Source of the DNA: Candidatus Iainarchaeum sp.
Lineage (GTDB): Archaea; Iainarchaeota; Iainarchaeia; Iainarchaeales; DTGL01
Reading direction: 5' to 3'
Assembly (NCBI GenBank): GCA_038736825.1
Contig: JAVYME010000006.1
Span: forward strand, 4,382-36,381
DNA: 32,000 nt
Part shown: positions 7,008-28,868 of the stretch, piece by piece
How the letters are laid out: each line of letters opens with the position of its first letter
How positions within the stretch are numbered: the first letter of the stretch is position 1
The notes under the pieces: model-generated
Told to the model about the DNA's origin: nothing
The model's input: only the letters and a program-made list of their open reading frames with translations
Database searches by the model: none
Position numbers and translations under genes: made by a program

Positions 7008-10004
7008 GCGTTAAAGCGTAACCTCGGGTTTTTAGTGTCAGTGGACTGAAAAGCTCGCCGAAGCTTGCTTCTTACATCTCTGACCTATCAAGCCGGTGTT
7101 ATACCGACACCCTTGTCCCTAGCGCTTTGCACCGAAGTGCAAAGTGTTCGGGATTGGCTGTCTATTTTCAGGGAACGCTTCAAGCTTAGATGCTTTCAGC
7201 TTTTATCGTTTACAGCGTGGCTACCCGGCTTTGCCTTGTCAGACAACCGGCAAACCAGTGGCTGCGACTCCAGGTTCCTCTCGTACTAATGGAATCTTTC
7301 CCTCAGACAACCAGCACTTCCAACAGATAGTATCCAAACTGGCTCGCACCGTTCTCAACCCAACTAACGTAGGGCTTTAATGAGTTAACACCTCCACCCT
7401 TGGCTGCTTATGCACAGCCAGGATGCCCTGAGACGACGGCGAAGTATCAAACCGCGGGGTCGATGTGGACTCTCACCCGCGACGGATCCATTACCCCCAA
7501 GGTAAGTTCACTATCAGACTAGGGCCCCTTCAATGGGCGCACTAGCGTTCACTAGACCGTGCTTTCGCAACAAGGTTTCTTGCTGTGTGAAACCCTGTAA
7601 AGCCTGCTTTTACTCTTATATTCAAAGGCGGATTTCTGACCCGCTTGAGCAGACCTTTGGATACCCCTGATATCTTTTCAGGGGTGTACCGCCCCAGTCC
7701 AACTGCCCGGCTAATGGTGTCCTTTTGCAAGTTAGCAAGACAGTTTTGTAGGGATGGTGTTACATTGTCGCATCCAGATTTCCTGACGAAAACCCTTCGA
7801 CTGCTCCCATCTACGCTATACTTACAAAACCGGCTCACAGCATCAGCTTGCAGTAAACCTCTGTGGGGTCTTCTCTTCCCGTTGGAAGTCCGCGGCATGT
7901 TCACCGCGTATCGCGTTCATCGGACTGAAGTCAGGGACAGTGGGGATCTCGTTGCTTCATTGGTGCAAGCCGGCATTAAACCGGCAAGGTATTACGCTAC
8001 CATGAGAGCCTCAGAGTTAGGCCCGCTCTTTACCAGCGCTTAGTCCCCTTGAACGGGGTTTTCACGTACTGGCAGTGAGCAGAGGTCAGCCCCTATTCAC
8101 ACCCTTGCGGGCTTGCAGGGACCTGTGTTTTTACTAAACAGTCGGACCCCCCTTGCTATTGAAACCAGGCATTCGCATGCCTGGCACCCCTTGTACCGAA
8201 GATACAGGGCTAATTTGCCGAATTCCCTTGACTTCATTACTCCGTTACGCCTAAGCTTTTTCAGCTAGGGGCACCCCTCTCGGTTCTCGGTACGGTTATT
8301 CGAAATCCTTGCCGCAAACCTTTTCACTGGCTCCAGGCCTCAGCCGAACCTTGCGGCTATTCCCATTTTTTGTCCTTTTCACACCATTACAGTTCTCCAA
8401 GGACTTATAATGGTTAAGGCCATCGACACTAGGCCTCAGCCTAGCCCGAAGCAACAGTTTGCAGCCATTCGTTGCCGAAAGCGTATTCGAATAGTACAGG
8501 AATATGAACCTGTTTCCCTTTCTCTTTCACCGTGTTACGGGAAAGATTAGGACCGACTGACCCTTAGCTAATGGTTAGCGCTAAGGAACCCTGGCCCTTT
8601 CGGCGGAAGGGATTCTCACCCTTCAATCGTTATTACTTGCCCAAGGATCCATACATCCAGCGGATTCACTGGACATTGCTGCCCAGCTTTCACTCCACCG
8701 GATTACCCCCTTACTGGTTGATAACTGTTACAGTTATCCCCAAAGGTTTCGGCAGCCGGTTTTAGCCCAGATTATCTTTCGGGGCCTTTGTCCTAGGTAG
8801 GTGAGCTATTACGCACTCTTTAGAGGGTGGCTGCTTCTAAGCCAACCTTCCTACTGTTTAAGGGCAGAGACACCCTTTGTGAGTGACACTTAACCGGCAT
8901 TTGTGGGCCTTAACCTTTGTCCGGGTTGTTCCCCTCCAAGACTAGCGGCTTACCCGCCAGCCCCCACTCCAGCCTTCTACGGCGATTGTTGCTTCGGAGT
9001 TTGAAAAGAAAGCCGGTCCTTTCGAACCAATACTTTCTACTCAGTATCTCTACACAACAATCAGCCTCTGGCCAGGCAATCCTTCGGGATTCTTCAGGGG
9101 GAGCCTGCAATCGCCAAGCGCGACTCGTATATCGCGCCTATTCCCAGGTCACCCGAGCAGATAGACTAGTACCGGTTGAAGTCCTCCACCTCTCGGAAGA
9201 GAGGCTTCGACTTGCCCAGGAATAGATCGCTTGGCTTCAGGTCTTGACCCAGTGACTGGGGCGCGAGAACACCCGCTCTCTCGCCGCATTTCGCGGTTGC
9301 AGAGCCTTCGGTTTCCCTTCGGCTGCTCCATTGACAGGATTAGCCTTGCCACTAGGACAAACTCCCTTGGTCGTGATTCTAGACGAACGGCGCAACCCTG
9401 GTCTGCAAGCTCGCTTGTTTTTTTGCAAAAACTTGCTTCGCTTGCTTCTACCCTTTTGAGCCGCGCCCGCCTGTCGCCATCTAGTTTCAAACGCTTTTCA
9501 GCCCCCGTTAGGGGTGCTTTTCAACCTTCCTTCACAGTACTAGTACGCTATCGGTCTCAACACGTATTTAGGGTTTGAAGTTAAAGACTCCATTCTTCGC
9601 GCGCAACATCCGGTGCACGCTACTCTTGAACTTGGCAATAATCCATTGCATTTCAGCTTACACGGCTTTCACGCTCTATGGCGCTCTGTTCCAAGAGACT
9701 TCTGCTTCAATGCTTTGGATTTAACCAAGCCAACACCACATCCACCATACATTGCTGTACGGTATTCGGTTTGCCCTCTGCCGTTTTTTCTCGCTGATAC
9801 TCACGGCATCTCAATTGATTTCTTTTCCTGCGGTTACTAAGATGCTTCAATTCACCGCGTATGCCCTCCCTTTCGGGATGATTCGGGAATCCAGGGTTCT
9901 AAGACTGCATGCGTCTCGCCCTGGCTTATCGCAGCTTGCCACGCCCTTCTTCGACAGTTGAGCCTAGTTATCCCCTAGATGGCTTTTTGTTCAACGCTTT
10001 ACGC
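7008..10004 (-). rRNA. rrl: 23S ribosomal RNA (ends approximate to +/-15 nt)
   Basis: The reverse complement carries the sarcin-ricin loop CCATTAGTACGAGAGGAACC (about 7278-7297), GCTGAAAGCATCTAAGC (about 7186-7202) and the 5' domain GAAGAAGGGCGTGGCAAGCTGCGATAAGCC (about 9922-9951). The terminal helix pairs 9994-10004 with 7008-7019. The length of about 3.0 kb argues against a large intron. Confidence 0.93.
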
Positions 10005-10025
10005 ATTCCAGTTCAAAAAAAACCG

Positions 10026-10060
10026 GAATTCGTGAAGTCAATGCCATTAACCTGTGCAGG
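10026..10060 (-). other. 5' strand of the pre-23S processing stem
   Basis: Complementary to 6976-7002 (see that entry). This geometry is typical of archaeal bulge-helix-bulge rRNA excision. Confidence 0.65.
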
Positions 10061-10232
10061 ATCATCTTCCGTTAACATGAAAACTACTGTTATGCTTGAG
10101 TTAACAGAATCACTATTCCATTCCAAAAAAGCTTGGAATGGTCATCATCAACAATGATGAATATAACAAAATCCCGCTTGGATTTTTTTTTTACAACTTT
10201 CTTTTCTTTTTTTGTGAATAGAAAGCTGTTAT

Positions 10233-10304
10233 TGGACCCAGCGGGAATCGAACCCGCGGCCTCAGCCTTGCAAAGGCTGCGTCATACCGCTAGACCATGG
10301 GCCC
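10233..10304 (-). tRNA. tRNA-Ala (anticodon UGC) in the 16S-23S spacer
   Basis: The minus strand reads GGGCCCATGGTCTAGCGGTATGACGCAGCCTTTGCAAGGCTGAGGCCGCGGGTTCGATTCCCGCTGGGTCCA. It has a 7-bp acceptor stem with a G3:U70 pair, anticodon stem CAGCC/GGCTG, loop TT-TGC-AA, and T arm GCGGG-TTCGATT-CCCGC. No CCA is encoded. Confidence 0.92.
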
Positions 10305-10370
10305 AGCATTGTAATATTCCGTTAGAGAATATTTTTATTTCCTTTCCACGGGTTCGCTTTTTTTTTGTTT

Positions 10371-10414
10371 GTTGTTCAAAGAGCCTTTCGGGCCAGTGCA
10401 CTGTTAGTGCTTTA
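10371..10414 (-). other. 3' strand of the pre-16S processing stem
   Basis: The RNA-sense 3' flank AAAGCACUAACAGUGCACUGGCCCGAAAGGCUCUUUGAACAAC pairs with the 5' flank at 12737-12783. GUUGUUUGAAGAGCC pairs with GGCUCUUUGAACAAC (15 bp including 2 G:U), CCAGUGCACUG with CAGUGCACUGG, and AGUGCUUU with AAAGCACU. Confidence 0.7.
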
Positions 10415-11076
10415 AATTAAAGGAGGTGATCCGTCCGCAGGTTCCCCTACGGACACCTTGTTACAACTTAGCCCGTCTCGCAGGACTCAGAATCGACTTT
10501 TTCTTTTGAAAAAGCCTCATCAAAACCCTACTCAACTGGCTTGATGGGCAGTGTGTGCAAGGCGCAGGGACGTATTCATCGCGCGATAGTGACACGCGAT
10601 TACTGGGGATTCCAAGCATTCACGAGGCAGGGTTTCAAGCCTCGATCTGGACCGAGACTGGCTTTAGGGGATTGCCTTGCCCTTTCGGGTTCGGAGCCCA
10701 TTGTTCCAGCCAATGTATGCCGCGTGTAGCCCAAGGCATTCGGGCCATACAGATCTACCGTCGACCACTCCTTCCTCCTTGTTTCCAAGGCGGTCCCATT
10801 AGAGTGCTCATCCAAAACTGGATAGTGGCAACTAATGGCGTGGGTCTCGCTCGTTGCCTGAGTTAACAGGACGCTTCATAGTACGAGCTGACGATGACCA
10901 TACAACACCTCTCAGCGTGTCAGGTAAGCCCTTCAGGTTGACCATCATTCTGCTGTCGGCCCTGGTGAGCTGTCTGGCGTTGAATCCAATTAAACCGCAG
11001 CATCCACCCCTTGTAGTGCGCCCCCGCCAATTCCATTAAGTTTCGGCCTTGCGACCATACTTCCCAGGCAGCGGAC

Positions 11077-11864
11077 TTAACGGTTTCCCTTCAGCACTCC
11101 GGTGTCAAATGAGACCGGAACACTTAGTCCGCATCGTTTACGGCTAGGACTAACCGGGTATTTAGTGGAAAGATGGAACTTTGCAAGCCTTGCCCTTTTT
11201 GCAGGATGCAAGGGCTGTGCAATGCCGAGAAATTTCTTCAAGTTTTGCTTGCCGTAAATGTAAAGCTCAAACTCTTCTCTTTTGCCTCTTTTTCTCTGCA
11301 ATTCGCTTGTTTTGATTCCTTTGCTTGAAAGGAATTTTTTCGCGAAATCCCAGAGCGGTTTTGAGGTGGTGGAGAAAGAGATTCTGGCTTGTTTTTTTCC
11401 AATGCTTGCCTCGGCGTCAAAGAGTCCCGCGAGATAAGCACCCTTATGTCCGTCAGACCATTTTGCAATGGAGGACGGGGGCGACAGGTGCTCCCTCACA
11501 GAGCCCTTTGGAACTTCAAGCACTTCTGTCAAATACTTGTATACAGCCTTGCTTTTTGTGTGACTGTAATAGGAATTCCTGTTCTTGTCATGGAATAGGT
11601 TTAATTTCACCCGAAAACCTTCAAAAACAATTTTTGCAATACCAAATGGTATTCCTTGTTTTTGTCGGTTATAAGGATTCTGCCGTAAGACGTGTTGCCG
11701 TCACCGTGCAATATGCCCAAAATCCTGCACAATTCTTTTGAAAACTGCGCTGGCAGTTTTACAATGAACTGCGAGTTTTTGTGCCTGAACCCTTTTCCAG
11801 TTTTCTGGATTTCAGGGTGTTTTTTCAGGAACGCATTCAATTTGCATTCCAAAACCTGTTCCAC
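11077..11864 (-). pseudogene. Double-motif LAGLIDADG homing endonuclease gene split by a 1-nt frameshift between the two motifs
   Basis: ORF 11607-11864 carries motif 1 (LGILHGDGN). ORF 11077-11610 carries motif 2 (YLAGLFDAEASI). The junction reads ttc ggg TGA aat TAA in frame 1 and G-TG-AAA-TTA in the -1 frame. The last 28 or so codons of the second ORF read into the 3' exon. Confidence 0.8.
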
Positions 11865-11910
11865 AAATTAATTTGTGCCTGAAGTTCTTAAAAGTTCCCC
11901 TTTTCCATAT
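11162..11910 (-). mobile_element. rRNA intron inserted within the conserved GGATTAGATA^CCCGGTTAGTCC site of 16S (junction ambiguous within the 3-nt ATA repeat)
   Basis: Exon sequence ...GACCCGGATTAGATA (ends about 11911) resumes as CCCGGTTAGTCCTAGCCGTAAACGATG at 11158 and downward. The intron ends are complementary (5' UGGAAA-AGG-GGAAC / 3' GUUCC-AUC-UUUCCA). It contains LAGLIDADG ORFs in the same orientation as the rRNA. Confidence 0.85.
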
Positions 11911-12736
11911 CTAATCCGGGTCGCTCCCCTAGCTTTCATGCCTCACTGTCAGGCCAGTCCTGGTCAGGCGCCTTCGCTACCGGTGGTCTTCTCGGGATCT
12001 TAGCATTTCACCGCTACTCCGAGAATTCCCCTGACCTCTTCCTGCCTCGAGCTTCCTAGTTTCCCTTGCGCGCCAACCCGTTAAGCGGGCTGATTTCACA
12101 GGGGACTTTTGAAGCTAGCTACGCATGTTTTAAGCCCAATATTAGTGGGCACCACTTGTGGAGTACGTGTTACCGCGGCGGCTGGCACGTATCTTGCCCC
12201 CCACTTATTCGCCAAGTTGTCTGGGCTTGGCAAAAGCCAGCAGTGCTGGCACTGGGAATCCCCCTATCGCGCTTTCGCGCATTGTAGAGGTTTCGCGACT
12301 GCTGCACCCCGTAGGGCTAGGGACCTTGTCTCAGTTCCCTACTCCGGGCTCCCTCTTCCAAGGCCCGTACAGATCTGAGGCTTGGTGGGCAGTTACCCCG
12401 CCAACAACCTATTCTGCCGCAGGCTCGTCCTTGAGCGCAACTTGCAGCATGAAGCAAGCGCTTTTTGGCAACAAGACATTCCAGTGCTTGTTGCCTATGG
12501 CACATTATCCCCAGTTTCCCGGGATTAATGCCTCTCAAGGGTAGATTGCCCACGTGTTACTGAGCCGTTCGCCAGAGGCCCTCGTGGCTGGCCTCTAAGA
12601 CTTGCATGTCTTAATCGGATTCCCATAGCAGTGCCCTCCAGCAGGATCAGCTGGAATCGGAAGAAACTCAATGGAATTTTTTTCCAGAAAACCTGAGCAC
12701 TTTTTTTAATGCTTTCAAGTTTTCTTTGTTATGTTG

Positions 12737-13259: not shown

Positions 13260-13514
13260 CTAATGCGTTTGGTATGCAGGGGCGCGGTGTTTTACGCTTA
13301 AGAGTGTGATTTTCTTTTCGCGCATGTTAATTTGCGCTATCAGCCTGTATTTGCCCACCCTGAGCTTGAACAAGTCGTGGCCTGTTAAGCGTTCGTAGAA
13401 GAGAAAGGGGGTTTTCGTTGTTGCGTTTAACTTTTTCTTTATGCGCTCGCGTTCGGTTTTTTCCAGTTTCTTGAATTCGCGGGCAAAGGCCTCAGTCAAA
13501 AGCAATTCGAACAA
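13260..13514 (-). CDS. relE: RelE/ParE-family type II toxin (mRNA interferase)
   Basis: 84 aa with a TTG start abutting the antitoxin stop. It has the family-typical AFAREFKKLEK... N-terminus and KLRVGKYRLIAQINMREKKITLLSVKHRAPAY C-terminus. Confidence 0.8.
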   Translation of the reverse strand: MFELLLTEAFAREFKKLEKTERERIKKKLNATTKTPFLFYERLTGHDLFKLRVGKYRLIAQINMREKKITLLSVKHRAPAYQTH

Positions 13515-13742
13515 TCAAACGCCCCACTTTTTCTCGGCATCCTTCAAAGACAAAACTCTGCCCTTCTTGATTTCTTCAAGCGAAGCCTCGATCTGCATTA
13601 TTTCCTCTCTGGAAAGAGGCTCTTCGCGTGCGACATTCAAAAGGCGCTTTATCACGTCATCAAACGGCTCGCGCTCGAAATTCTTGAACTTTGCCAGTTC
13701 TCGCTTTACGGGAAGGCTAACCCTTAAAGTTGTAGTAGTCAT
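13515..13742 (-). CDS. Ribbon-helix-helix-type antitoxin partner of RelE
   Basis: The preferred start is the ATG at 13742 (MTTTTLRVSLPVKRELAKF...) rather than the track start at 13763, because a TATA box sits 24 nt upstream of 13742. The N-terminus has a beta-strand plus helix pattern. The stop abuts the toxin start. Confidence 0.65.
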   Translation of the reverse strand: MTTTTLRVSLPVKRELAKFKNFEREPFDDVIKRLLNVAREEPLSREEIMQIEASLEEIKKGRVLSLKDAEKKWGV

Positions 13743-13766
13743 AAAGTATATCAATGTATACAAAGG

Positions 13767-14965: not shown

Positions 14966-15199
14966 ATGGATTTGAAAAAACTGTTGTTAGAGGAAAACGT
15001 TGGCGGAATGGACCTTTTTTTGAGAGCAATAATTGGAACAATTTCAGTTTTTGCTTTGGCGCTGGGAATTGTTCCATCCGGAACAATGGCACTGGCAGTT
15101 GCACTTGTTGGCGCAATTGGATTGTTTTCTTCCCTGACAAGGCATTGCACTCCGTATGCCTTGATTGGTTTTAGCACTGCAAAAAAGCCTTTTCGCTGA
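14966..15199 (+). CDS. DUF2892 (YgaP-like) small membrane protein
   Basis: 77 aa. The pattern NVGGMDLFLRAIIG...GAIGLFSSLTRHCTPYALIGFST fits NvGxxDRxxRxxxG...CPxYxLxGxxT. The Shine-Dalgarno sequence GAGGTGA (14952-14958) lies 7 nt before the ATG. Confidence 0.8.
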   Translation: MDLKKLLLEENVGGMDLFLRAIIGTISVFALALGIVPSGTMALAVALVGAIGLFSSLTRHCTPYALIGFSTAKKPFR

Positions 15200-15268: not shown

Positions 15269-16745
15269 TTATGTTTTTTGTTGCTGGTTTTTTTTGAGTT
15301 CTTTTATTTCTGCTTGGATTGCAAGGGTTTGTTTTTTGAATTCTTCTTCTGTGATGCGTCTTTTATAATAGTCTATTTGGAGGTCTTTAAGCATGCGGTT
15401 TCTTTTAGCAATCTCAAAACGCTGTTGTTCGCTTAACAGGTTTTGTTGCTTGAAATGGTTAGCCAGCCGGTTTAACAAGAATAAGGCAATAATTATGAAT
15501 GCCAATAGCGCGCCTACTGCAATTATTGGCGCAGTAAAATCTGCTATTTGAGTTATTATTTTTTGTTGTCCAGGAATGCACTTGTTTTCTTCTATACTAC
15601 AATTGTATCCTTCAGGGCAACCGCATTCTTGGCAGTTTTCAACCCATTTTTGGTTCAAGCAATAATATGGCTTGTAGGGACCGCAACCGGTTTGAGTGCA
15701 TTGCGCTCCAACCAAAGGCTGTTGTGGAGCAATCGTTGTGGCTGGTTGCATTATTGTTTGGGTTGCAGTTGGCTGGATTGCAGTGGGAGTTGCTGTAATG
15801 GTTTGTGTTGAAGCAATGGTTTGAGTTGGAGTGGTTGGCTTTACGCATTTTCCGTTTGAGCACACTAGGTTTGCAGCGCAATTGCCACACAAAACCTGGT
15901 TTCCGCAACCATCATCCCAATAATCGCATTCTTTGCCCAATTGCAAGCAAGACTTGGGAGTGCACTGTGGTGTCCAAATTGCAGTCGGTGTTGGCGTTGG
16001 AGTTTGTGTTATTGTGGGTGTTGTTGTGGGATTTGTAGTGCTCGCTGTGCTGGTGAAATTATTGAAATCCAGGATTTTACCTGATGCTTTTTGTTCGCCT
16101 TTTTCAGCAAGGGCTTTAAAATAGTATTTCGAATTTGCTTCAATTGGAATTTCTTTAGAAAAAGAACTCCTCCCTGCACTAACTGTTTTCTTTTCCGTAT
16201 GCTTGAGCTCAGTTGTTCCCTCCTTCCAGTATTCAAACCAAACAGAACAACCATTTGGACAATCGAATTCACCCCGCAAGTTTGCTTTTGAAGAAGAAAT
16301 GTCAATGGCTTTCAATGTTTTGACAAAAATAGGGATAACCCACTTACAATAATAATATTTTGAGCACTCTTCTTGGTTACTCAAAGAAGAACAAGCCCTT
16401 GGAGTGCCTTGGCATTTGGATTCTAAATAACAGCCTTGTTGTTTGCTGCAATCGTTTGCTGAAAAAAAACCAGCAAGGCTCGAGTAGTCCAGTACAGCCA
16501 GTTCTGTTGTCCCACGAGCACCATTTCTGCTCAACACATTCGACTGTATTATTAAGGTCTTCGCATGGCGTTGGATTGCCAACACAGTCTAGACCCCACA
16601 TGCAATCAAATTTTAAACACTCGGATTGGTTTGTAATTGTATAACAATTTGGTGGCTCAGATTTTTGAATGCATTCTGCTTGCGCGCTTGCAGTGAAAAA
16701 AGCAATTACAACAAACACCAGTGAAAGCAAAAAGCCTTTTTTCAT
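15269..16745 (-). pseudogene. Cys-rich type I membrane surface protein interrupted by a frameshift at an A8/T8 homopolymer (pseudogene, assembly error or phase-variable gene)
   Basis: ORF 16377-16745 supplies the signal peptide MKKGFLLSLVFVVIAFFTASAQA and two Cys modules. ORF 15269-16585 has no signal peptide but continues the same Cys periodicity, then has TP/TQ linkers, a DDGCGNQVLCGNC module, a TM helix (APIIAVGALLAFIIIALFLL) and a charged tail. Removing one base of the run at 16462-16469 fuses the frames. Confidence 0.75.
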
Positions 16746-16894
16746 TTCAAAATAGAAACGCTTTTTTTGAATAAAAACCTTTCCTGGGAAAAATTTTGCA
16801 TTTTTTTAAAGGCAAGGCTGAAAAAAAACACAGTGAACTCAATAAAGTTCTCTGGATAATTTCAGCAAAACCGGTTTGTGCTAATTCCAAGCAA

Positions 16895-17326
16895 TTATTT
16901 TTTCTTTTGCTCTGGTTCAGCTTTTTTCCATGCAAGGAAAACAAAAAAGCAAAGCAAGAGCACTCCCAACACAATCCTGCCAAGGATTTCACTGACTGCA
17001 ACTGAAAAAGACAGTGCTCCAAAAACAAAAAGCAACAGTCCTCCAAGCAAAAAACCCATTTGGATTACGGGTTGCGCTTTCAAGAACTTGCTTGCAAGCA
17101 GGATAGTGGCAAGCCCTGCAATAAAAATTACAATTGCCTGGTATGCTCTAACCTCTTCCTGTCGGGCATAGCAGGCTTGCATTTGCACTGAATCCTGCAA
17201 TTCATAGCATTCTGGAAGTGAAATAATGGCTGACACTGTCATTGTAACAATCAAAATGAAAAGCACTGCAATTACTAGGGCAAAAACAACCCCTGTGAAC
17301 CACAAAGCGCTTTCCTTCAAATCCAT
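16895..17326 (-). CDS. Hypothetical 4-TM membrane protein
   Basis: 143-aa ORF with four hydrophobic segments. A TATA box sits 22 nt upstream of the ATG. Confidence 0.65.
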   Translation of the reverse strand: MDLKESALWFTGVVFALVIAVLFILIVTMTVSAIISLPECYELQDSVQMQACYARQEEVRAYQAIVIFIAGLATILLASKFLKAQPVIQMGFLLGGLLLFVFGALSFSVAVSEILGRIVLGVLLLCFFVFLAWKKAEPEQKKK

Positions 17327-17348
17327 GTTCTAAAATATGCTTTTGCCC

Positions 17349-17356
17349 TATTTAAA
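17349..17356 (-). promoter_or_regulatory. TATA box (TTTAAATA) for the leaderless 16895-17326 transcript
   Basis: The minus strand reads ggTTTAAATAgggcaaaagcatattttagaacATG. Confidence 0.5.
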
Positions 17357-17386
17357 CCTTTGCCTTCGTTTTTTTTTCGCAAAACC

Positions 17387-17395
17387 TTAAATATA
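17387..17395 (+). promoter_or_regulatory. TATA box for the leaderless 17419-21312 transcript
   Basis: The plus strand reads ccTTAAATATAacttattcaattgataaataagcATG, with 23 nt between the box and the ATG. Confidence 0.5.
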
Positions 17396-17418
17396 ACTTA
17401 TTCAATTGATAAATAAGC

Positions 17419-20400
17419 ATGCAATTGTTGTCTTTCCACAAAAAAAACCCTTTGCTTTTTTCACTGCTTTTATTTCTTTTTTTTGAAATTCCTGTTTTTG
17501 CAGCCAATCCTCCAGGCGATTGGAGCATGTACTGGTGGGAAAACGGTCAGCTCAAAAGATGGAATTTGGACACAGCGACAACCACTATTGTTGAAGGCGC
17601 TGTCAAGTCAGGCGAAACCACTCTTTTCATGAATCCTGACACAGGCGAACTCCAAATGATGACTCCGGAAACCCACGGAGCAGTGTTCGTAAAAGAAGAA
17701 GACAAAGACGCAATGACCGCAGAATACTATAAGGCACTAGAGGCGCACTATAAAGAGGAAGTAGACCAAGGACAAAAGGATTTTGCAGTTTGGACTGGTT
17801 CAGACGGAAAAACCTATGCTTACTCAAAGGGAGACTCATCGCCCAAAGAAGTGGAGTTAAAAGAAAGCGGGTATTTTGAGAAAGACGGGAAATACTATAA
17901 AGTGAATCCTGACACTAAAAAGGTTTATTCTGTTAGTGAAGAGGAATTCTTTGTTCATGGTACTAAAGAAGAATTTTGGGCTGTGAGTGAAGGCGATGAA
18001 GTTTTTTTGCTTAAGCGCGGTGATATGGAAGGAGAAGTTGAAAAGTATTCTGATGGGTGGCAAAGAACGGATGGAACTTATTTTTGGACTGGCAGTGAGA
18101 ATGATCCAATTTTTTATCGAGTAAGCCTAGATGGTAAAACAGTTGAAAAAATTGGAGTTGAAGAATACGTTGGTTTGTCGCCTGATTTAAGTCTAGAACA
18201 AAAGGCTTTTTTCAAAGACGCGCTTTTGTCTATGGCTTACGAATTAGTCGGTACCCCCAAGCAAGCTAAATTGGAGTATTTTTGCAAACTGTGTTTTGGA
18301 GAAGATACTGCTGAAGAGAGTTCTTATCTTTTGGATAGCATGACTAGTAATAACGTAGAGGGTTTGAATCTTACAGTTTTAGATAATTTAAGTTATGTTG
18401 ATAGTGGAAAGGGAATATTGTGTGGCCTTAACGGGATTTGCTATCCATACAATCCTGTTGGAGAGGCAAATTCACAACCAGTTGGTAGGATAGTGAAAGT
18501 TGGCAGTCAATATGTGTATGTTAGTGACAATGATAGCCAGCAGTATAAAGAGCAGCATGGAACGCAGTTAAGTGCCCTAGCAACACAAGCTGAATTAAGT
18601 GCAAGTGACAGAGTGGTTGTTGAAAAGCAAGCTTCAGGTGGCGCATCACCAAGTGATAGTAAAATAGGAGACCAAGATTTAACAGGCGTTGCATCTGGTT
18701 GCAGTGGTTTTGGTTGTAGTGGGGGGGATATAGGGGAAGAGCAGCAACCTGGTCTTGAAAGTTGCGCTACAGCGCTTTCTTGTTCTCATTATTATGCTCA
18801 AAATGTTTGCGGTTATAATTTGGATAATGGTTGTGGTGGCACTATTTCTTGTGTTTCCTGTCCGACTGGTTTTGTTTGTAGGAATGGTTCTTGTGCTTGC
18901 ACTCCTAAAACCGCTTGTTCTTTGCAAAGCAAGTGCGGTGAAGAGGATAATGGTTGTGGTGGTAAAATTTTTTGTGGTTCTTGTCCTGCTGGCTTGCAGT
19001 GTGACTTGCAATACAGGGAGTGCGTTCCAGAAAAGGAAAAAACTTATTTGGATTTGAGTGAAATAAGTGTTTTTGCTTATTCCAATTATGCAGTGCTTTC
19101 TTGGAATACTTCTGTTCCGTCTGATTCCATTGTTTTTCTTGGCAAAACGCCAGCACTTGGATTGCAGCAAAATGTTTCTTTTGCCACTAAAACCCATTCT
19201 CTTTTGTTGGAGGGTTTGCAGCCAGACTTAGTTTATTATTATAAAGTGCGGGTTGTTGCTGGCAGTGAATCTAGGGAAAGCTCTGGTTCCTTTAAAACGC
19301 TCAAGGTTGGCGCTGACACTGGACCATTGAAGGTGTTAATGGTTTCAGTTGACCCGCCTGGAAGGGCTGAATACGAGGGTTATGCTTTTTCTTTTACTGC
19401 TTTAACCAATTCTTTGAATCCTTCAGAGCTTGAATTTGAATGGGATTTTGGTGATGGTTTTGTTTCAAAGAAAGCAGGCTATGTTGTTTACCATTCATAT
19501 TATGGTTTGACTGAAAAGGAAAAAGATTTCAATGTAAGGGTGATTGCAAGGGATAAAAACGGTTTTAGTGCTGAAAGCAGTTTGACTGTCAAGGTTTTAA
19601 AAGCGGTTTTCAAGCCAGTTGTTTTGTCGCCAAGCCAGTTTGAATTGTTGTCAAAAAAAGGCAAGCTGGCTTTTTCAATTGTTTTTTTGGATGAACAGGA
19701 AAAAATGATTCCTTGCAAAAAAATAGTCTTAAAGGCTATTTTTGCAGGGCAAAGCATTGAAATGAAGTGCGATGACGGCAATCTTTTCAGTGGCTCTGTT
19801 TTGGGTTGGCATGGCTTGGATGAACTGGAATTGCTGGCAATTTATGCAAGCTATACTTTGGGTGAAAGGACTTATTTTGTTAAAACAAGGGCGCCAGTTT
19901 ATTTGGCTCCAGCCAGGATTTCTGTAAGTGACATTTTCAGGCAAAAAAAATATTTTTTGAATGATTCCCTTGGAAAAGCCAAAGCCAGGTTTTTGATTGA
20001 AAAAATAATGCTGGTTTTTCCCCAAAACCTAAAGGCACAGCTTGTTTCAAGCAATTGGTCAAAGGATGTAAACATTGAAAGACAGGAATACGATTACATT
20101 CTCTCTTTTGACCATGTTGTAAGTGAAACCGATTTATTGGAGGGCTTAAAGCTGAAATTGGAGGGCAGGGATTCGCATGGAAACATTGTTGCAGAACTAA
20201 TAGAATTGCCTCTTGAAAAAAGCAATCCAGAGCTAAGAATTGAATTGATTGAACCAATAGAGGGCAGTAGTGGTTTTGCTTTTGGGCAAAGGCTTAGGGT
20301 TAGAGCCAAAGCAATTCATAAAAGCCCTTCCCTTAAAAACAAAGCCTTGTTTTTGGAATGCGGGCGCCTTGATCTTTTTACTGGAATGGAGTTTGATTCA

Positions 20401-21312
20401 ACCAAAAAAGAATATTTTTCTGAAATATTGCTGCCATTGCCTGGTTTTGGTAATGCAACAATTTTGTGCAGTGTTCACGCTTACGGTTTTGAGGGCGAAA
20501 GGCAAGTGGAAAGCGTTGCCCACTTCACAGTAAATCTTTCAGGCAACCTTGGAATAGAATTTGTTTTGCCATCACAAGGCAATTTCAAGGTTTTTGGTGG
20601 GCGCGTGGGACAATTAAGGGTTAAATTGTTGCAAGAGAACGGCAAACCCTTTGAAGGACTGGATGTCAATGCAGTTTTAGTGGTTGACGGCAAAACAATG
20701 GAGAAAACCTTAAAGTTTGATTCTTGGAGTGGAGTGCACTATGCAGACCTTGATTCACCCCTTGAAGCAGGCCAGCATTCTCTGGCTGTTTCGTTATCCC
20801 AGCCATTCCAGGGAAACAATGAAATTTTGACAGTGATTGAAGAGGATGTTTTCGCTGGCTTTTTGCTTTCAAGCTTGGTTTTGCTAATTGTTGTTGGCTT
20901 GCTTGTTTGGTTTTTTTGGTTTTTTTCCAGAAATGCTTTGGCTGAAAGAAAGGCGTTGTTGGCTGAAAAGCAAAAGCTTTTGGGTTTAAGGAAAAAATAC
21001 AAGTTTGAGTTTTTCAAAAGGCATATAAGTGAAAAGGAATTCAGAGAGCGCTCGAAGGCAATCGACAAGTCCTTGGAATTGGTTTCTGGAATGCTAAGGC
21101 ATGGCGCATGGGTTCGCGTTGGATTAATGAAAACAATTTATCGAACAAATGATATCAAAAAACTGCCTTTGAAAGCGCAAGCGGAAGCGCTTTGCATAAG
21201 GCTTGCTGGCAAAAGCGGAGAGTTTTCCAGAATAGAGGTTGCCAAAACGCTTTTAAGCGAAGGCTATCAAGAAAAAACCATAAACGAGGTATTGGACAGG
21301 CTTTTTAAGTGA
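17419..21312 (+). CDS. Giant type I membrane surface protein: signal peptide, W/Y/G-rich repeat region, two Cys modules, FN3-like and PKD domains, Ig-like repeats, TM helix, SHOCT-like cytoplasmic tail
   Basis: 1297-aa ORF. Signal peptide is LLFSLLLFLFFEIPVFAA. Cys modules are CGYNLDNGCGGTISCVSCPTGFVCRNGSC and CGEEDNGCGGKIFCGSCPAGLQC. PKD signature is LEFEWDFGDGF...VRVIARDKNGFSAESS. TM segment is FLLSSLVLLIVVGLLVWFFWFF. The tail contains FEFFKRHISEKEFRERSKAI. Confidence 0.88.
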   Translation: MQLLSFHKKNPLLFSLLLFLFFEIPVFAANPPGDWSMYWWENGQLKRWNLDTATTTIVEGAVKSGETTLFMNPDTGELQMMTPETHGAVFVKEEDKDAMTAEYYKALEAHYKEEVDQGQKDFAVWTGSDGKTYAYSKGDSSPKEVELKESGYFEKDGKYYKVNPDTKKVYSVSEEEFFVHGTKEEFWAVSEGDEVFLLKRGDMEGEVEKYSDGWQRTDGTYFWTGSENDPIFYRVSLDGKTVEKIGVEEYVGLSPDLSLEQKAFFKDALLSMAYELVGTPKQAKLEYFCKLCFGEDTAEESSYLLDSMTSNNVEGLNLTVLDNLSYVDSGKGILCGLNGICYPYNPVGEANSQPVGRIVKVGSQYVYVSDNDSQQYKEQHGTQLSALATQAELSASDRVVVEKQASGGASPSDSKIGDQDLTGVASGCSGFGCSGGDIGEEQQPGLESCATALSCSHYYAQNVCGYNLDNGCGGTISCVSCPTGFVCRNGSCACTPKTACSLQSKCGEEDNGCGGKIFCGSCPAGLQCDLQYRECVPEKEKTYLDLSEISVFAYSNYAVLSWNTSVPSDSIVFLGKTPALGLQQNVSFATKTHSLLLEGLQPDLVYYYKVRVVAGSESRESSGSFKTLKVGADTGPLKVLMVSVDPPGRAEYEGYAFSFTALTNSLNPSELEFEWDFGDGFVSKKAGYVVYHSYYGLTEKEKDFNVRVIARDKNGFSAESSLTVKVLKAVFKPVVLSPSQFELLSKKGKLAFSIVFLDEQEKMIPCKKIVLKAIFAGQSIEMKCDDGNLFSGSVLGWHGLDELELLAIYASYTLGERTYFVKTRAPVYLAPARISVSDIFRQKKYFLNDSLGKAKARFLIEKIMLVFPQNLKAQLVSSNWSKDVNIERQEYDYILSFDHVVSETDLLEGLKLKLEGRDSHGNIVAELIELPLEKSNPELRIELIEPIEGSSGFAFGQRLRVRAKAIHKSPSLKNKALFLECGRLDLFTGMEFDSTKKEYFSEILLPLPGFGNATILCSVHAYGFEGERQVESVAHFTVNLSGNLGIEFVLPSQGNFKVFGGRVGQLRVKLLQENGKPFEGLDVNAVLVVDGKTMEKTLKFDSWSGVHYADLDSPLEAGQHSLAVSLSQPFQGNNEILTVIEEDVFAGFLLSSLVLLIVVGLLVWFFWFFSRNALAERKALLAEKQKLLGLRKKYKFEFFKRHISEKEFRERSKAIDKSLELVSGMLRHGAWVRVGLMKTIYRTNDIKKLPLKAQAEALCIRLAGKSGEFSRIEVAKTLLSEGYQEKTINEVLDRLFK

Positions 21313-25146: not shown

Positions 25147-26775
25147 ATGCCTATTGTGAAGAAATTAAAGTTTTTGTTTTTGACTGCAATTTTTTTGGCT
25201 TTTTTGCCAACAGTTTTTGGGGACTGCCTGGTTTTAGACCAGCAAGTGAAAAGCGGAGATAAAATCAAAACTGATTGCTTAAAGCTCACTGGTGCAAACA
25301 CAGAGCTTTTCAAAAATGACAGCGAGCTTTATTGCATTGGCTCGTCAGTTTATTTTGCCACAACCGTCCTCAACCCAGCAACCGGCAATATAGTTCAAGC
25401 ATACAATTGCCAGTGCGAAGACAAGCAAGTCCACCACCCTTGGTTTGTGAGGTCTGAAATATCAATGCCGGTTTTTTCAAAGAAAAAAGTTTGCCCTGGA
25501 GAAAAAATCACTGTTTCCGTAGCGCCTTTTACAATCCAGTGCATTGATGGCGCGCTATCCTCTTTTTCGCCGGCTTTCCTTGTAGGCTACGAATTTGAGG
25601 GAAAGCCCCAAATTATTGGACATAACTGCAATCATCTTTCCTCTAATGGTTGCAATTTAGTACCCCATTCACAGGGCGGGCAATCCATCACAATAACAAT
25701 TCCGCAAAACCTTTCAAGCGAGAAAAAAATCAGGCTCTTCACTGCAATGCAGGCAAAATACGATTACCAGATAACGGCAAACTCTATGTCTTTGCCGATA
25801 GTCCACTGGCAAACAATAGAACTGGAATCAGACAACTATTTTGATTTTGCAACAGACAAGTTAACATATTGCAGGGATGACGCTGTACTGGTTACAGGCG
25901 AATCTGTTTGCTGTGGCTCTGTTGGTTCCACTGTTGAGATTGTATTGAAAGACAGTTCTGGGAAAAAAGTGAAAACTGTTTCAGTCCAAATAAAGGCAGA
26001 CAACAGTTTTTCAGCCACAATTCCCTTGAACAATAACCCGGCAGGCCAATACATTGTGAGCGCAAAAAGCACTGAGGGGGGCTGTTCTGCTGAAAGGCCC
26101 ATAAATGTCATTGAATATTCCTCTTCCATTCTTTCCAATAACTTTTCCTTTGCCCCCAATTCGCCTGTAACAATTTCAGGTTCAACAGAGTGTTGTGCCA
26201 AACCATCGCAAAAAGCTAACATCAAACTTTTAGACACAACCAAAAATGTTATATCCAGTGAAAGCGCTGTCATAAAAAACAATGGTTCTTTTGAAGCCAC
26301 AATGCTTGTGCCGGGAAAAGCCGGTGAATACTTTGTTGTCGTCGATTTCCCTAATCCAGTGCCAGAATGCACTGGAAAAAGCTTAAAAGTGAGCGTCTAT
26401 GACCCCTACATTATAACCTCGGTTGAGGCGGAAAACAGAGAGGAAGGCCAAAAGGCAAGAGTGAGGGTTTCCTGCAACAAGGAAATGCCTGTTTTATTGA
26501 AATTGTTCTCTGAACCGGTTGGCAAAAGCGAAGAATTGCTGGCAGAACAAAACTATCAATGCAATACCGGCTTTGTAGAGATTGGGCCAGAGCTTTCATC
26601 CGGAATATACCGCGTTGTTGCAATTTCAAAGATTGCCACTTGTGAAAAGTGCGAGGGCATAAAGCGCTTTGTTGTTTCAAAAGGAGTTGTTTTAGATGTG
26701 CCTGATTTCAGTCTTTTCCTTTTAGGGTTAATTCCGCTGAGCATTCTTTTTTTGACAAAAAAAAGGGAAAAATAA
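25147..26775 (+). CDS. Secreted, C-terminally anchored protein with two tandem Ig-like repeats each opening with a CC pair
   Basis: 542 aa. Signal peptide is LKFLFLTAIFLAFLPTVFG. The repeats are VTGESVCCGSVGSTVEIVLKDSSGKKV...NNPAGQYIVSAKSTEGGCS and ISGSTECCAKPSQKANIKLLDTTKNV...GKAGEYFVVVDFPNPVPECT. The C-terminal TM plus basic tail is LFLLGLIPLSILFLTKKREK. Confidence 0.8.
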   Translation: MPIVKKLKFLFLTAIFLAFLPTVFGDCLVLDQQVKSGDKIKTDCLKLTGANTELFKNDSELYCIGSSVYFATTVLNPATGNIVQAYNCQCEDKQVHHPWFVRSEISMPVFSKKKVCPGEKITVSVAPFTIQCIDGALSSFSPAFLVGYEFEGKPQIIGHNCNHLSSNGCNLVPHSQGGQSITITIPQNLSSEKKIRLFTAMQAKYDYQITANSMSLPIVHWQTIELESDNYFDFATDKLTYCRDDAVLVTGESVCCGSVGSTVEIVLKDSSGKKVKTVSVQIKADNSFSATIPLNNNPAGQYIVSAKSTEGGCSAERPINVIEYSSSILSNNFSFAPNSPVTISGSTECCAKPSQKANIKLLDTTKNVISSESAVIKNNGSFEATMLVPGKAGEYFVVVDFPNPVPECTGKSLKVSVYDPYIITSVEAENREEGQKARVRVSCNKEMPVLLKLFSEPVGKSEELLAEQNYQCNTGFVEIGPELSSGIYRVVAISKIATCEKCEGIKRFVVSKGVVLDVPDFSLFLLGLIPLSILFLTKKREK

Positions 26776-28700
26776 TGCTGCCAAAAAGAGTTTTTTTAGC
26801 CTTAATAGTGCTATTTGCTTTTTTTCCCCTGCCTGCTTGTGCTTGGAAAGAAGAGTTTTTTGCAGAAGGCCAGCTTTCAGCATCGCTTGACCGAAATTTT
26901 GCTCTTGCCGGCGAAACATTGACAGCAAACCTTTTGATTGAAAACCTTTCAGGAGTGCCACTCTCTGAAGCATACCTGGTTGCCCAGCTTGTTCTTGAAA
27001 AAACCGCTTTAGGGCAGCCAAGGGAAAACATTGTATTGGAAACCATGAGCAAAAAATATTTTTTGAATGCAGGCGAGTCAAAGCCGGTTGAAATGAAGAT
27101 TGCAATCCCAAAAAAAGCCAGTTCTGGCAGTTACAGGATTGACTTTTACCTTAAGACTCCGCGCTCCTTTATTGTCGGCATTCCCTTTATTTTCTTGAAC
27201 CCTCACTCTGAAAGGCTTGAGGTCAAGAACAATGCGGTTTCCAGTGATGTCTTGATTGACAGAGAAAAAACCATTTTGTGCGGTGCACTGCCTGAAAAAA
27301 ACTACGAGTATGGCTGTTATCCCGGGCCTGTTGGCGTTGTCGGCAAGGCTGGGGAAAAAAACACGCTCAATCTTGCAATAAAAAACAATGGCTCCTTTTC
27401 TCAGCAGGTTTCACTCAAAATAAGCTTTTACAGGTATGATGACACTGTTGAAGAAATGCTTTTGGCTGAAAAAACAGTCCAGGCAAAAACAGTCATTGGA
27501 GCAGGAGAAACAATTGAACACCCTGTTGAATTTTTTTATCCAGAAAAAGCGGGCGCTTATGCTTTGAGGCTCGAGGTTTTTGACAGCGAGGGCGAACTCC
27601 TTTCACTTTACAGGAGCAGAATAAATGTTTACGGTGTAAGCGCCAGAGTTATCGCGGTTTTCCCGCAAAAAAAGTTTTTCAAGGCAGGGGAAAGAGTGCT
27701 TGTAGAGGTAAAAATAATTTCCCCCTCGGATTCCAAGACTTCGGACACAAATTGCACGGTAAGGCTTTCAGCAAAAAAAGGACAGAGAGAAATCCATTCC
27801 GAGTCAAAAAAAGTCTCCCTTTTGCAGGATTTGCCGCTTCAAAGCGTTTTTTTTGAGTTTACTGCCCCAGAAGACTTGTTTGAATTTGAAATTTCAGCTG
27901 AAATCCTTGATTCCTCTGGAAACGAAGTTGACAAAACAACGCAAAAAATTGATTACAAAGATTTTTCACAAAAAATCGGTTCTTTTGACTTGAACATTTT
28001 AGACTCTGCCGGAGAAACCCCTTCAATGATATTGGTTGGCGACACCATAAAACTCTCAGCAAATGCAGTTGACGAAGCAGGCTTTGATGCAAATGCAAAA
28101 ATTGAATGCTTTGTGTTTTTTGGCGCTCAAAAGGCCGGCCCAATAGTGTTTGAAAAGAAAACGGAGTTAACGGAAAGGCTTTCATCAGGAGACTATTTAT
28201 TGCAATGCCAGGCAGGCAAAAAAAAGATGGAAATCCCTTTTTTTGTCAGTTCTGTGCAAAAAATAGTGGCAAAATTTGCAGACAACTGTGAATTCAAAGA
28301 GGAAAAGCAAAAATTCACAGCAGGACAAGAAATCTGCGTAAAGGCAATCGTTTTGAATGAAAGCGGGGAAACACTTTCAACTCCAACAACAATGAGCATA
28401 AAGGGAAAAGATTCCACGGTTGGCCCAATTGAATTCAGTGCTGAAACAAAGGTTTCAAACCTGCCTGAAGGAAAATATATTTTCAAATTCGAATCAGGCG
28501 GGCTTGTTGAAACCTATGCAGTCAACTTTGAAGCAGTGACTGAACCAGAACGCTTGGTATTGCCTGAGAGGTCTATTCAAACCAAAGCAGCGCACACACC
28601 GCTTTCATTTTACCTTATGCTTGTTGTAACAAGCATTGCAGTCTTTCTTTTCTTAGTGGGCCTTTTAAGGATTTACAGGAAAAGGCGTGCTGGAAAATAG
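26775..28700 (+). CDS. Secreted, C-terminally anchored protein built of repeated CARDB-like / Ig-like beta-sandwich units
   Basis: 641 aa. The start overlaps the upstream stop (TAATG). Signal peptide is VFLALIVLFAFFPLPACA. Units include LTANLLIENLSGVPL and LNLAIKNNGSFSQQVSL. The C-terminal anchor is LMLVVTSIAVFLFLVGLLRIYRKRRAGK. Confidence 0.8.
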   Translation: MLPKRVFLALIVLFAFFPLPACAWKEEFFAEGQLSASLDRNFALAGETLTANLLIENLSGVPLSEAYLVAQLVLEKTALGQPRENIVLETMSKKYFLNAGESKPVEMKIAIPKKASSGSYRIDFYLKTPRSFIVGIPFIFLNPHSERLEVKNNAVSSDVLIDREKTILCGALPEKNYEYGCYPGPVGVVGKAGEKNTLNLAIKNNGSFSQQVSLKISFYRYDDTVEEMLLAEKTVQAKTVIGAGETIEHPVEFFYPEKAGAYALRLEVFDSEGELLSLYRSRINVYGVSARVIAVFPQKKFFKAGERVLVEVKIISPSDSKTSDTNCTVRLSAKKGQREIHSESKKVSLLQDLPLQSVFFEFTAPEDLFEFEISAEILDSSGNEVDKTTQKIDYKDFSQKIGSFDLNILDSAGETPSMILVGDTIKLSANAVDEAGFDANAKIECFVFFGAQKAGPIVFEKKTELTERLSSGDYLLQCQAGKKKMEIPFFVSSVQKIVAKFADNCEFKEEKQKFTAGQEICVKAIVLNESGETLSTPTTMSIKGKDSTVGPIEFSAETKVSNLPEGKYIFKFESGGLVETYAVNFEAVTEPERLVLPERSIQTKAAHTPLSFYLMLVVTSIAVFLFLVGLLRIYRKRRAGK

Positions 28701-28868
28701 CAATTGAAGCCTTTTTTAAAAAAACAGACCGCGGGTATTTTAAGGATTGAATGCGGGAAATCGCAATTCCGCCCACGCAAGAGAATGAAAACTGTTTTTT
28801 CCTAAAAAGCGTTTGAAAAAAGATTATGAATAAATGCTTTTGCACTCCAAAGGTTAAGGGCAAAAGCA

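Follow-up and report, generated by a model that had tools for sequence, protein, structure and literature searches.

A transmembrane-plus-hairpin tail family in predicted type I surface proteins of Candidatus Iainarchaeum

Two genes in a 32,000-nucleotide stretch of a Candidatus Iainarchaeum sp. assembly (GCA_038736825.1, contig JAVYME010000006.1, positions 4,382 to 36,381 of the forward strand; hereafter the window) encode Cys-rich membrane proteins that share an ectodomain Cys module and a cytoplasmic tail. Gene A encodes the smaller protein and gene B the larger (Table 1). Both products are probably lineage-specific, adhesin-like type I surface proteins that carry a portable anchor cassette, a transmembrane (TM) helix plus a helical hairpin, with the hairpin probably docking a cytoplasmic partner. 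The tail family is specific to one DPANN phylum, Iainarchaeota, in which every locus of the genome scan was found, and the cassette appears to be previously undescribed. The initial annotation of the window, made from the sequence alone, had described A and B as paralogous, receptor-like proteins with a SHOCT-like tail.

Sequence comparison indicates that the Cys module and the tail are each homologous between A and B. The D-(D/N)-G-C-G module, which the initial annotation had read in both proteins, aligns with a BLASTP E-value of 2e-7 and Smith-Waterman scores of 78-103 (shuffle mean near 29, standard deviation near 6), and none of 20,000 composition-preserving shuffles reached these scores. 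The proposal that a single TM segment is followed by an alignable tail in both proteins also holds. The tails align at E 9e-5 (BLASTP) with a Smith-Waterman score of 67 against a shuffle mean of 28.6 (standard deviation 5.3), a score that 0 of 20,000 composition-preserving shuffles attained, and hhalign joins the A-like and B-like tail subfamilies with a probability of 95.9% (E 5.4e-9). A chance resemblance between low-complexity, K/E-rich helices might be suspected, since the tails contain much K, E, and R and those of A and B are only 18-27% identical in pairwise alignment. However, such a resemblance can practically be dismissed given the shuffles of this K/E-rich sequence, the hhalign result, the gapless alignment of 24 members with an invariant Arg, the same TM-relative position in every member, and the confinement of all matches to one phylum.

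The type I assignment is based on one segment of Kyte-Doolittle hydropathy 2.8-3.0 in each protein, followed by K/R-rich sequence, with all Cys residues and Pro/Thr linkers N-terminal to it. Signal peptides were judged by hydropathy and an AXA-type cleavage motif; both proteins have the hydrophobic N-terminus and AXA-type site ascribed to them earlier, although in A these are out of frame with the rest. Paralogy, in turn, stands at the level of modules but not over the full length, where A shares only parts with the Ig-array family of B. BLASTP aligns B with eight relatives (L010, P0019, P0012, P0014, P0017, P0010, P0011, and L008; P and L numbers denote proteins and loci) at E 1e-15 to 5e-45. 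These alignments cover 330-715 residues, running through the Ig array, TM helix, and tail, and the partners have A-like or intermediate tails. Thus, one broad family exists. Judging by its sequence, A is a small member that is joined to this family only via a CxxCGC module, the TM helix, and the tail. The DGCGG module and the tail also occur without each other. The hidden Markov model (HMM) of the module finds it in no A-like member other than A, and P0003, an unrelated protein that lacks the tail, contains the module.

A tail profile built from three sequences was used for an exhaustive search of 1.84 billion (1.84e9) representative proteins. The search returned 25 matches at E<1e-3, 10 of them at E<1e-10; one match, a TPR protein, is spurious, leaving 24 credible members. 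All 24 have a strong TM segment within ~20 residues upstream of the tail, and the relatives with complete N-termini have signal peptides (P0002, P0010, P0011, P0013, P0014, P0018, P0019, and P0020). The 24 tails align without gaps to the consensus ..EKxxFEIAKRKRLLKDLKxEYYKRHISEEEYKxKxLxIQxELKEL.., in which R38 is invariant (24/24) and K29, K37, and E42 are at least 90% conserved. The family motif, (F/Y)(F/Y)KR(H/R)I(S/T)ExE(F/Y), lies ~30 residues past the TM helix, at or near the C-terminus, and is present in A and B. A-like tails (P0002 and P0005-P0015) are usually preceded by a membrane-proximal CxxCGC module. In addition to A, this module is found in P0002, P0006-P0015, and L003, and it is typical of the A-like subfamily; residues 339-396 of A match these members at BLASTP E 1e-7 to 1e-3. 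One A-like relative, P0002, is a 528-aa type I protein from an uncultured-archaeon assembly, with a tail 52% identical to that of A. Five of the A-like members (P0010-P0014) have a second motif, (I/V)(E/D)xR(I/V)(E/K)EIK(K/R)(K/E)R(E/K)KG.(P)L, at the extreme C-terminus, 30-60 residues past the hairpin; by eye it resembles MIT-interacting (MIM1) helices, and it is absent from A and B.

Family members place the tail behind at least six ectodomain architectures. These include a discoidin-like domain with Pro/Thr linkers, TSP3-like repeats, three PKD domains, FN3 pairs, Ig arrays, and many Cys modules. B-like tails are found in P0016, P0018, P0020, P0022, P0024, and P0026/L012, all of which are collinear orthologues of B that retain its two DGCGG modules, FN3-like and PKD domains, Ig array, TM helix, tail, and C-terminal domain. 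Further proteins with both the ectodomain module and the tail therefore exist, as the initial annotation had anticipated of a genuine family. P0018, P0020, and L012 still have both DGCGG copies; in P0024, which is truncated at the N-terminus, the module HMM detects one. Over the stretch that starts with the Cys modules and ends at the C-terminus, the orthologues are 35-58% identical to B, with ~50% in the hairpin, which is as conserved as the ectodomain core. The distal ~400 residues of B reach only 22-24% identity, and this region has no Pfam match and no family assignment. In B itself, PKD_4 (19.8 bits) and Pur_ac_phosph_N (18.4 bits) fall below the Pfam cut-offs. However, the same families exceed them in orthologues (PKD_4 in P0018, 37.4 bits with a cut-off of 27; Pur_ac_phosph_N in P0020, 31.7 bits with a cut-off of 30).

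The phylogenetic distribution of the tail is narrow. A pattern scan of one genome per species (185,579 species) gave 10 confirmed loci, 10/10 of them in Candidatus Iainarchaeum metagenome-assembled genomes (MAGs) (Iainarchaeota, Nanobdellati, equivalent to DPANN). A metagenome scan with the alignment of the cytoplasmic part of B added at least one locus, L012. In at least one MAG, two such genes were found, each on its own contig (L003 and L008). Neither a tblastn search of plasmids and phages with the DGCGG module nor a search of viral contigs with the tail pattern gave a match. Word-index searches recovered few relatives. Repaired A retrieved only itself, P0002 as a tail relative, and P0003 as a Cys-module relative, probably owing to crowding by Pro/Thr low-complexity words; full-length B retrieved only itself, despite its true orthologues, and the alignment of 24 tails retrieved nothing. 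Exact-match look-ups with B and with the membrane protein encoded between A and B gave no recorded contig. Literature on DPANN or Iainarchaeota surface proteins with such tails yielded nothing relevant. The A-like genes of L001-L003 are syntenic, each lying between alaS, which encodes alanyl-tRNA synthetase, and a 200-aa gene of no known function. Gene A of the window lies outside the alaS context, and its neighbors are not common to other loci.

AlphaFold2 monomer models were computed for the TM helix and cytoplasmic part of B (alignment of seven sequences) and for the TM helix and tail of A (15 sequences). The model of B has a mean predicted local distance difference test score (pLDDT) of 88.2 and a predicted template modeling score of 0.73. 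It consists of a helix at 2-57 that runs from the TM segment to FEFF, a turn at 58-62 (KRHIS), a 24-residue return helix at 63-86, and four further helices. The model of A has a pLDDT of 89.4, rising to 96-98 in the hairpin, with a helix at 9-65, a turn at 66-70 (KRRIT), and a return helix at 71-95 that extends up to the C-terminus. In the models of both subfamilies, then, the TM helix reaches ~30 residues into the cytoplasm without a break, turns at K-R-(R/H)-I-(S/T), and is followed by a second helix running back, giving a predicted antiparallel alpha-hairpin ~45 A long. Column statistics show one heptad stripe of hydrophobic positions per helix, as expected of a two-helix antiparallel coiled coil, and the strongest conservation at the tip. 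A Foldseek comparison of both cytoplasmic models with the PDB found nothing below E 0.49, the nearest structures being generic antiparallel helical hairpins, and a PDB sequence search with the tail and C-terminal profiles found only designed coiled coils or a de novo protein.

B-type proteins extend beyond the hairpin, and the last ~45 residues resemble the three-helix unit of RecX (PF21982, RecX_HTH1). RecX_HTH1 matches 7/11 aligned B-type C-termini at E<=1 (best E-value, 3.8e-7). The score of B, 20.4 bits (E 5e-4), is below the gathering score of 26 bits. RecX carries three tandem three-helix repeats. The B-type proteins have a candidate three-helix unit of this kind at their C-terminus but differ in having a single unit, tethered to the membrane behind a surface protein and outside any recA context. 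The whole cytoplasmic model of B had no significant Foldseek match in the PDB. The extra cytoplasmic residues of the larger protein, previously put at roughly 80, are indeed an addition, although their number is about 70 here.

SHOCT (PF09851) is a ~30-residue unit of two short amphipathic helices at fixed spacing, with strongly conserved Gly and Glu residues and no indels (Eberhardt et al., 2013; PMC3581485). It is usually C-terminal, is found mainly in bacteria, and its function is not known (PMC3581485). The initial annotation had matched the I(T/S)E.EF core of the tails to this domain. However, the match is limited to a six-residue string, and the tail is not a SHOCT domain, as it has no detectable membership in the family. 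PF09851 found nothing at E<=10 in the two window tails, the 24 family tails, or three core segments. An expressed SHOCT peptide from PMC3581485 Table S1 (F0QBY7.1, VMATLEKLGDLKAKGILTQEEFDAKKAELLK) served as a positive control and scored 43.7 bits (E 2.1e-11; PF09851 gathering score, 27 bits), so the library and method can detect SHOCT in so short a sequence. Conversely, the tail profile gave 0.9 bits on this peptide, and Smith-Waterman alignment of the peptide with the tails was no better than with shuffles, 262/1000 of which reached the score.

A divergent SHOCT domain would account for the short, all-helical two-helix design, the N-capped second helix, the usually C-terminal location, and the (I/L)(T/S)-x-E-E-(F/Y) start of helix 2, which is the only sequence feature in common. 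Additionally, the true SHOCT peptide and tail A both match the same part of GvpG very weakly (E 0.012 and 0.049). Even so, this relationship is very unlikely and is largely refuted by the PF09851 negatives together with two further differences. The position of the conserved SHOCT Gly is occupied by the invariant Arg in 24/24 tails, whose loop, K-R-(H/R/Q)-I-(S/T), has no conserved-Gly column and leads into I/L/V, S/T, E (23/24), x, E (21/24), and Y/F/L at alignment columns 40-45. Helix 1 of the tail exceeds 30 residues and, in the AlphaFold2 models, continues the TM helix. The tail family is also confined to Iainarchaeota. Removing the SHOCT label now prevents its spread into annotation.

The tail was suggested earlier to be more than a stop-transfer sequence, and this part of the proposal gains support. 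Three other surface proteins of the window lack a hairpin tail, since their C-termini consist of a TM helix followed by only 7-10 basic residues. The hairpin is conserved far more than stop-transfer would require, and as much as the ectodomain core, which suggests that it probably has its own function. We consider an adhesin-like role with cytoplasmic docking the most probable one. The ectodomains combine, as mosaics, disulfide modules peculiar to the lineage with Pro/Thr linkers and with beta-sandwiches of the FN3, PKD, or Ig-like type. In the predicted anchor cassette, the TM helix would extend into the cytoplasm, turn at the tip, (F/Y)(F/Y)-K-R-(H/R)-I-(S/T)-E-x-E-(F/Y), and be followed by the antiparallel second helix, with B-type members adding a small helical domain that ends in the putative RecX-like unit. 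The hairpin may then serve as a rigid cytoplasmic stalk of ~45 A, the conserved basic and aromatic tip of which would dock a cytoplasmic partner to retain, position, or cluster the adhesins. It would be neither a stop-transfer sequence nor an enzyme-linked signaling domain. Several points weigh against this role. The models are monomers from shallow alignments (7 and 15 sequences), and the heptad pattern has no extra hydrophobic stripe pointing to a binding or oligomerization surface. The K/R and E residues of the tip could form intra-hairpin salt bridges, and tip conservation may thus be structural only. Finally, the frameshift in gene A may leave it without function in this genome.

Homo-oligomerization and signal relay are the main rivals of docking, and neither is directly supported. 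By packing into bundles of four or six helices, neighboring hairpins could gather the surface proteins as dimers, trimers, or a lattice. The tail is predicted to be an amphipathic antiparallel hairpin directly beneath the membrane, and helical hairpins often dimerize, the ESCRT-I core and serine-integrase coiled coils being among the Foldseek neighbors. However, the single hydrophobic stripe of each helix is already used by the hairpin itself, and conservation peaks at the tip and not along the helices, so we regard packing of this kind as unlikely, though worth keeping in view. A transmembrane receptor seems slightly less likely still. It would relay ligand or host contact through the TM helix and hairpin to the cytoplasm and, in B-type members, through the RecX-like domain. 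Conservation on both sides of the membrane fits a receptor, as do the continuous helix, which in the models could pass on piston or rotation movements, and the folded (predicted) cytoplasmic domain of B-type members with its HTH-like unit. Yet Pfam, NCBIfam, PDB sequence, and Foldseek searches revealed no known signaling domain, A-type tails stop directly after the hairpin, and no neighboring regulator is conserved, given the alaS context of A-like genes and the unshared neighbors of the window genes.

In the sequence as it stands, a 1-nt frameshift puts the signal peptide of gene A out of frame with the remainder of the protein, and the minus-strand gene is not the single intact gene that had been assumed. 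Its span of 1477 nt is no multiple of three and holds two overlapping open reading frames (ORFs) in different frames. The ORF at 16377-16745 encodes the signal peptide and about three Cys repeats, and the ORF at 15269-16585 encodes everything else. The two frames join at a T8 run. In repeat 3 (CTGLLEPCWFF followed by SANDCSKQQGCYL), which crosses this junction, the Cys residues are spaced as in repeats 1, 2, and 4, and the four tandem Cys4 repeats (residues 25-50, 54-78, 84-107, and 111-135 of repaired A) are readable across the junction only with one T removed. Because the repeats continue after this removal, the region was once a single gene that underwent a 1-nt indel. Downstream of the repeats, the FN3-like domain of A has no Pfam match, but residues 105-229 match the repeated VWFEYGT domains of L003 at BLASTP E 1.9e-7.

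The frameshift raises the question of whether A is a decaying pseudogene, leaving one functional gene of the pair, or whether assembly error, slippage, or phase variation at T8 is involved. This is a serious possibility, although on the whole we lean against it. The lesion separates the signal peptide from the rest of A, and the database gene call on this contig (P0001) begins downstream and lacks the signal peptide. Against decay, the lesion is single, 438 downstream codons are open, and every module of A is intact. Moreover, the affected site is a homopolymer, a kind of tract prone to errors of sequencing, assembly, or transcriptional slippage. Homopolymer runs of 8 or more are common throughout the AT-rich window, so the T8 tract is not special, and phase variation as a particular feature of this site was discarded.

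The tip motif also occurs outside membrane proteins. In three Iainarchaeota MAGs, a lysine-rich protein without a TM segment contains it (..LIKSLNMDFFKRRITEEEYRRKTLEY..; FFKRRITEEEY-type). This protein also has an amphipathic stretch at the N-terminus and a MarR-like winged helix at the C-terminus. The gene that encodes it is directly upstream of a T2SSE type IV pilus ATPase gene and two T2SSF genes, and the same three loci have VWA and pilin-like genes upstream. In one of them (L005 10897-13983), the T2SSE gene is interrupted by a several-hundred-residue insertion with a LAGLIDADG domain, probably an intein. The occurrence of the motif in a non-TM protein suggests that it works in the cytoplasm. 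The scan pattern inflates the scores of the lysine-rich protein matches, and by our own estimate chance alone would give about 90 pattern matches in 596 Gb, compared with 65 seen; two independent orthologue groups inside one small phylum are nevertheless unlikely to arise by chance. The lysine-rich protein is a possible cytoplasmic counterpart of the tail. A bolder proposal, which we consider improbable at present, is that the tip is a lineage-specific cytoplasmic docking code that couples Iainarchaeota surface adhesins to one shared intracellular partner. The obvious candidate for this partner is the winged-helix protein itself. If the code were real, the adhesins would share their positioning or regulation with the pilus machinery, and host-contact proteins would have an inside-out link to a cytoplasmic scaffold in a DPANN archaeon.

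Table 1. Positions of genes A and B, their parts, neighboring genes, and related loci. Numbers refer to the window unless a locus is named.
Feature	Position	Strand	Evidence or remark
Cys-rich secreted protein with PKD domain	4595-6274	minus	
rRNA operon (23S rRNA gene, tRNA-Ala, 16S rRNA gene)	7012-12657	minus	
Gene A, small type I surface protein	15269-16745	minus	~491 aa once repaired; split in two frames as sequenced
Signal peptide of A, MKKGFLLSLVFVVIAFFTASAQA then EC	16677-16745	minus	hydropathy 2.16; AQA cleavage-type motif
Four tandem Cys4 repeats, C-x6-8-C-x7-9-C-x5-C-x-W/L, mature N-terminus of A	16340-16673	minus	regular expression
T8 homopolymer, site of frame shift	16462-16469	minus	seven T restore a single ORF
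FN3-like beta-sandwich domain of A, VWFEY... type	16061-16336	minus	
DGCGG Cys module of A (CTPKSCLQLGKECDYWDDGCGNQVLCGNCAANLVCSNGKC), Pro/Thr-rich linkers on either side	15845-15964	minus	module HMM 75 bits
Membrane-proximal CxxCGC Cys module of A (CTQTGCGPYKPYYCLNQKWVENCQECGCPEGYNCSIEENKC)	15578-15700	minus	
Single TM helix of A	15473-15538	minus	Kyte-Doolittle 2.97
Cytoplasmic hairpin tail of A	15272-15472	minus	tail profile 113 bits
Conserved tip YYKRRITEEEF of A tail	15338-15370	minus	
Orphan membrane protein, 143 aa, ~4 TM, between A and B	16895-17326	minus	hydropathy: about four hydrophobic segments
Gene B, large type I surface protein, 1297 aa	17419-21312	plus	intact ORF
Signal peptide of B, MQLLSFHKKNPLLFSLLLFLFFEIPVFA then AN	17419-17502	plus	hydropathy 2.19; motif VFA then AN
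Variable distal region of B, W/Y/G-rich beta-hairpin-like repeats	17503-18780	plus	
Two tandem DGCGG Cys modules of B	18781-18894, 18898-19023	plus	module HMM 61 and 72 bits
FN3-like domain (~residues 540-630) and PKD domain (653-726) of B	19036-19596	plus	
Ig-like domain array of B, common to wider family	19609-20823	plus	
Single TM helix of B	20851-20925	plus	Kyte-Doolittle 2.81
Cytoplasmic hairpin tail of B	20926-21096	plus	tail profile 82 bits
Conserved tip FFKRHISEKEF of B tail	21010-21042	plus	
C-terminal helical domain of B with RecX-like three-helix end (RGEFSR..E..GY...V...LF)	21097-21309	plus	
Three large surface proteins (CARDB/Ig-like, TSP3, transglutaminase matches)	25147-31280: 25147-26775, 26775-28700, 28869-31280	plus	
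A-like gene between alaS (alanyl-tRNA synthetase) and 200-aa gene	L001 59-4343; L002 376-5467; L003 5565-10794		
Lysine-rich motif protein	L005 9167-10858; L007 9131-10813; L011 9581-10714		

Genes A and B sit within a cluster of secreted and membrane proteins in the window. The other large secreted proteins of the cluster comprise one Cys-rich protein with a PKD domain, two Ig/CARDB-like proteins, and one with TSP3 repeats and a transglutaminase core. By eye, the PKD protein contains a further small Cys module, approximately C-x-P-G-W-x-C ... C-x-W ... C-x-x-G-C-x-N-G-x-C, which is also present in A-like and B-like members of the tail family (P0002, P0008, P0013, P0018, and L012). At least four disulfide modules appear to be shuffled within the lineage. 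The membrane protein placed between A and B by the initial annotation is there, and it had been put forward for a co-occurrence search as a potential partner. However, it belongs to no Pfam or NCBIfam family, has no homologue at the 11 related loci (L001-L011), and forms a singleton cluster in a 15-billion-protein collection, which rules it out as a conserved partner. The 92-bp spacer between this gene and gene B (17327-17418) contains TATA-like A/T boxes, TTTAAATAG on one strand and TTAAATATA on the other, each ~25-35 nt from its start codon by eye; the arrangement is consistent with divergent archaeal promoters with short leaders. On the other side, just past the stop codon of A and convergent to it, a 77-aa membrane protein of the YgaP-like TM family (47.5 bits) is encoded at 14966-15199 (plus).

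Between the rRNA operon and the surface-protein genes, adjoining small genes at 13260-13763 (minus) match a ParE toxin (32.8 bits) and a VapB-type antitoxin (24.5 bits), and are likely a toxin-antitoxin pair. Within the operon, the 16S rRNA match (10421-12657, minus) spans 2237 nt compared with a model of 1478 nt, implying an insertion of ~750 nt. An ORF in this insertion (11077-11610, minus) encodes 177 aa with a LAGLIDADG_3 homing-endonuclease domain (48.5 bits). The insertion resembles an rRNA intron that encodes a homing endonuclease.

DPANN surface proteins are obvious candidates for host recognition, and to our knowledge almost none has been characterized. The tail defines a domain family, so far without annotation, that comprises about two dozen clusters at 50% identity and marks a set of surface proteins by their shared modeled hairpin. 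A TM segment followed by YYKRHISEEEY offers a sequence handle for listing such proteins in genomes, and the conserved tip is a concrete target for partner identification. The family may also exemplify type I surface proteins of prokaryotes whose cytoplasmic tail is conserved and, by prediction, folded; no DPANN description of such proteins was found in the literature.

With respect to known systems, the tail cassette is a variation on a familiar archaeal surface-protein theme. Like archaeal and bacterial adhesins or surface-layer (S-layer)-type proteins, family members have a signal peptide, Pro/Thr linkers, beta-sandwich (PKD, FN3, Ig-like) arrays, a single C-terminal TM helix with positive-inside charge, and a variable distal tip. 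Membrane anchors of adhesin or S-layer-type proteins normally stop a few basic residues past the TM helix, whereas the tail family has 55-150 conserved cytoplasmic residues, predicted to be folded, after it. The cassette also shares features with C-terminal sorting signals (PGF-CTERM/archaeosortase, LPXTG/sortase, and Por_Secre_tail), which likewise form a portable C-terminal cassette behind many unrelated ectodomains in one lineage. Sorting signals consist of a short motif, a TM segment, and a few basic residues, and are removed from the protein. A and B have no NCBIfam or Pfam sorting-domain match, and a PGF-CTERM-like signal was rejected, since by eye the family has no conserved motif outside the TM segment and the 55-150 residues past it are too long. 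Unlike a sorting signal, the conserved part of this family is a long cytoplasmic hairpin.

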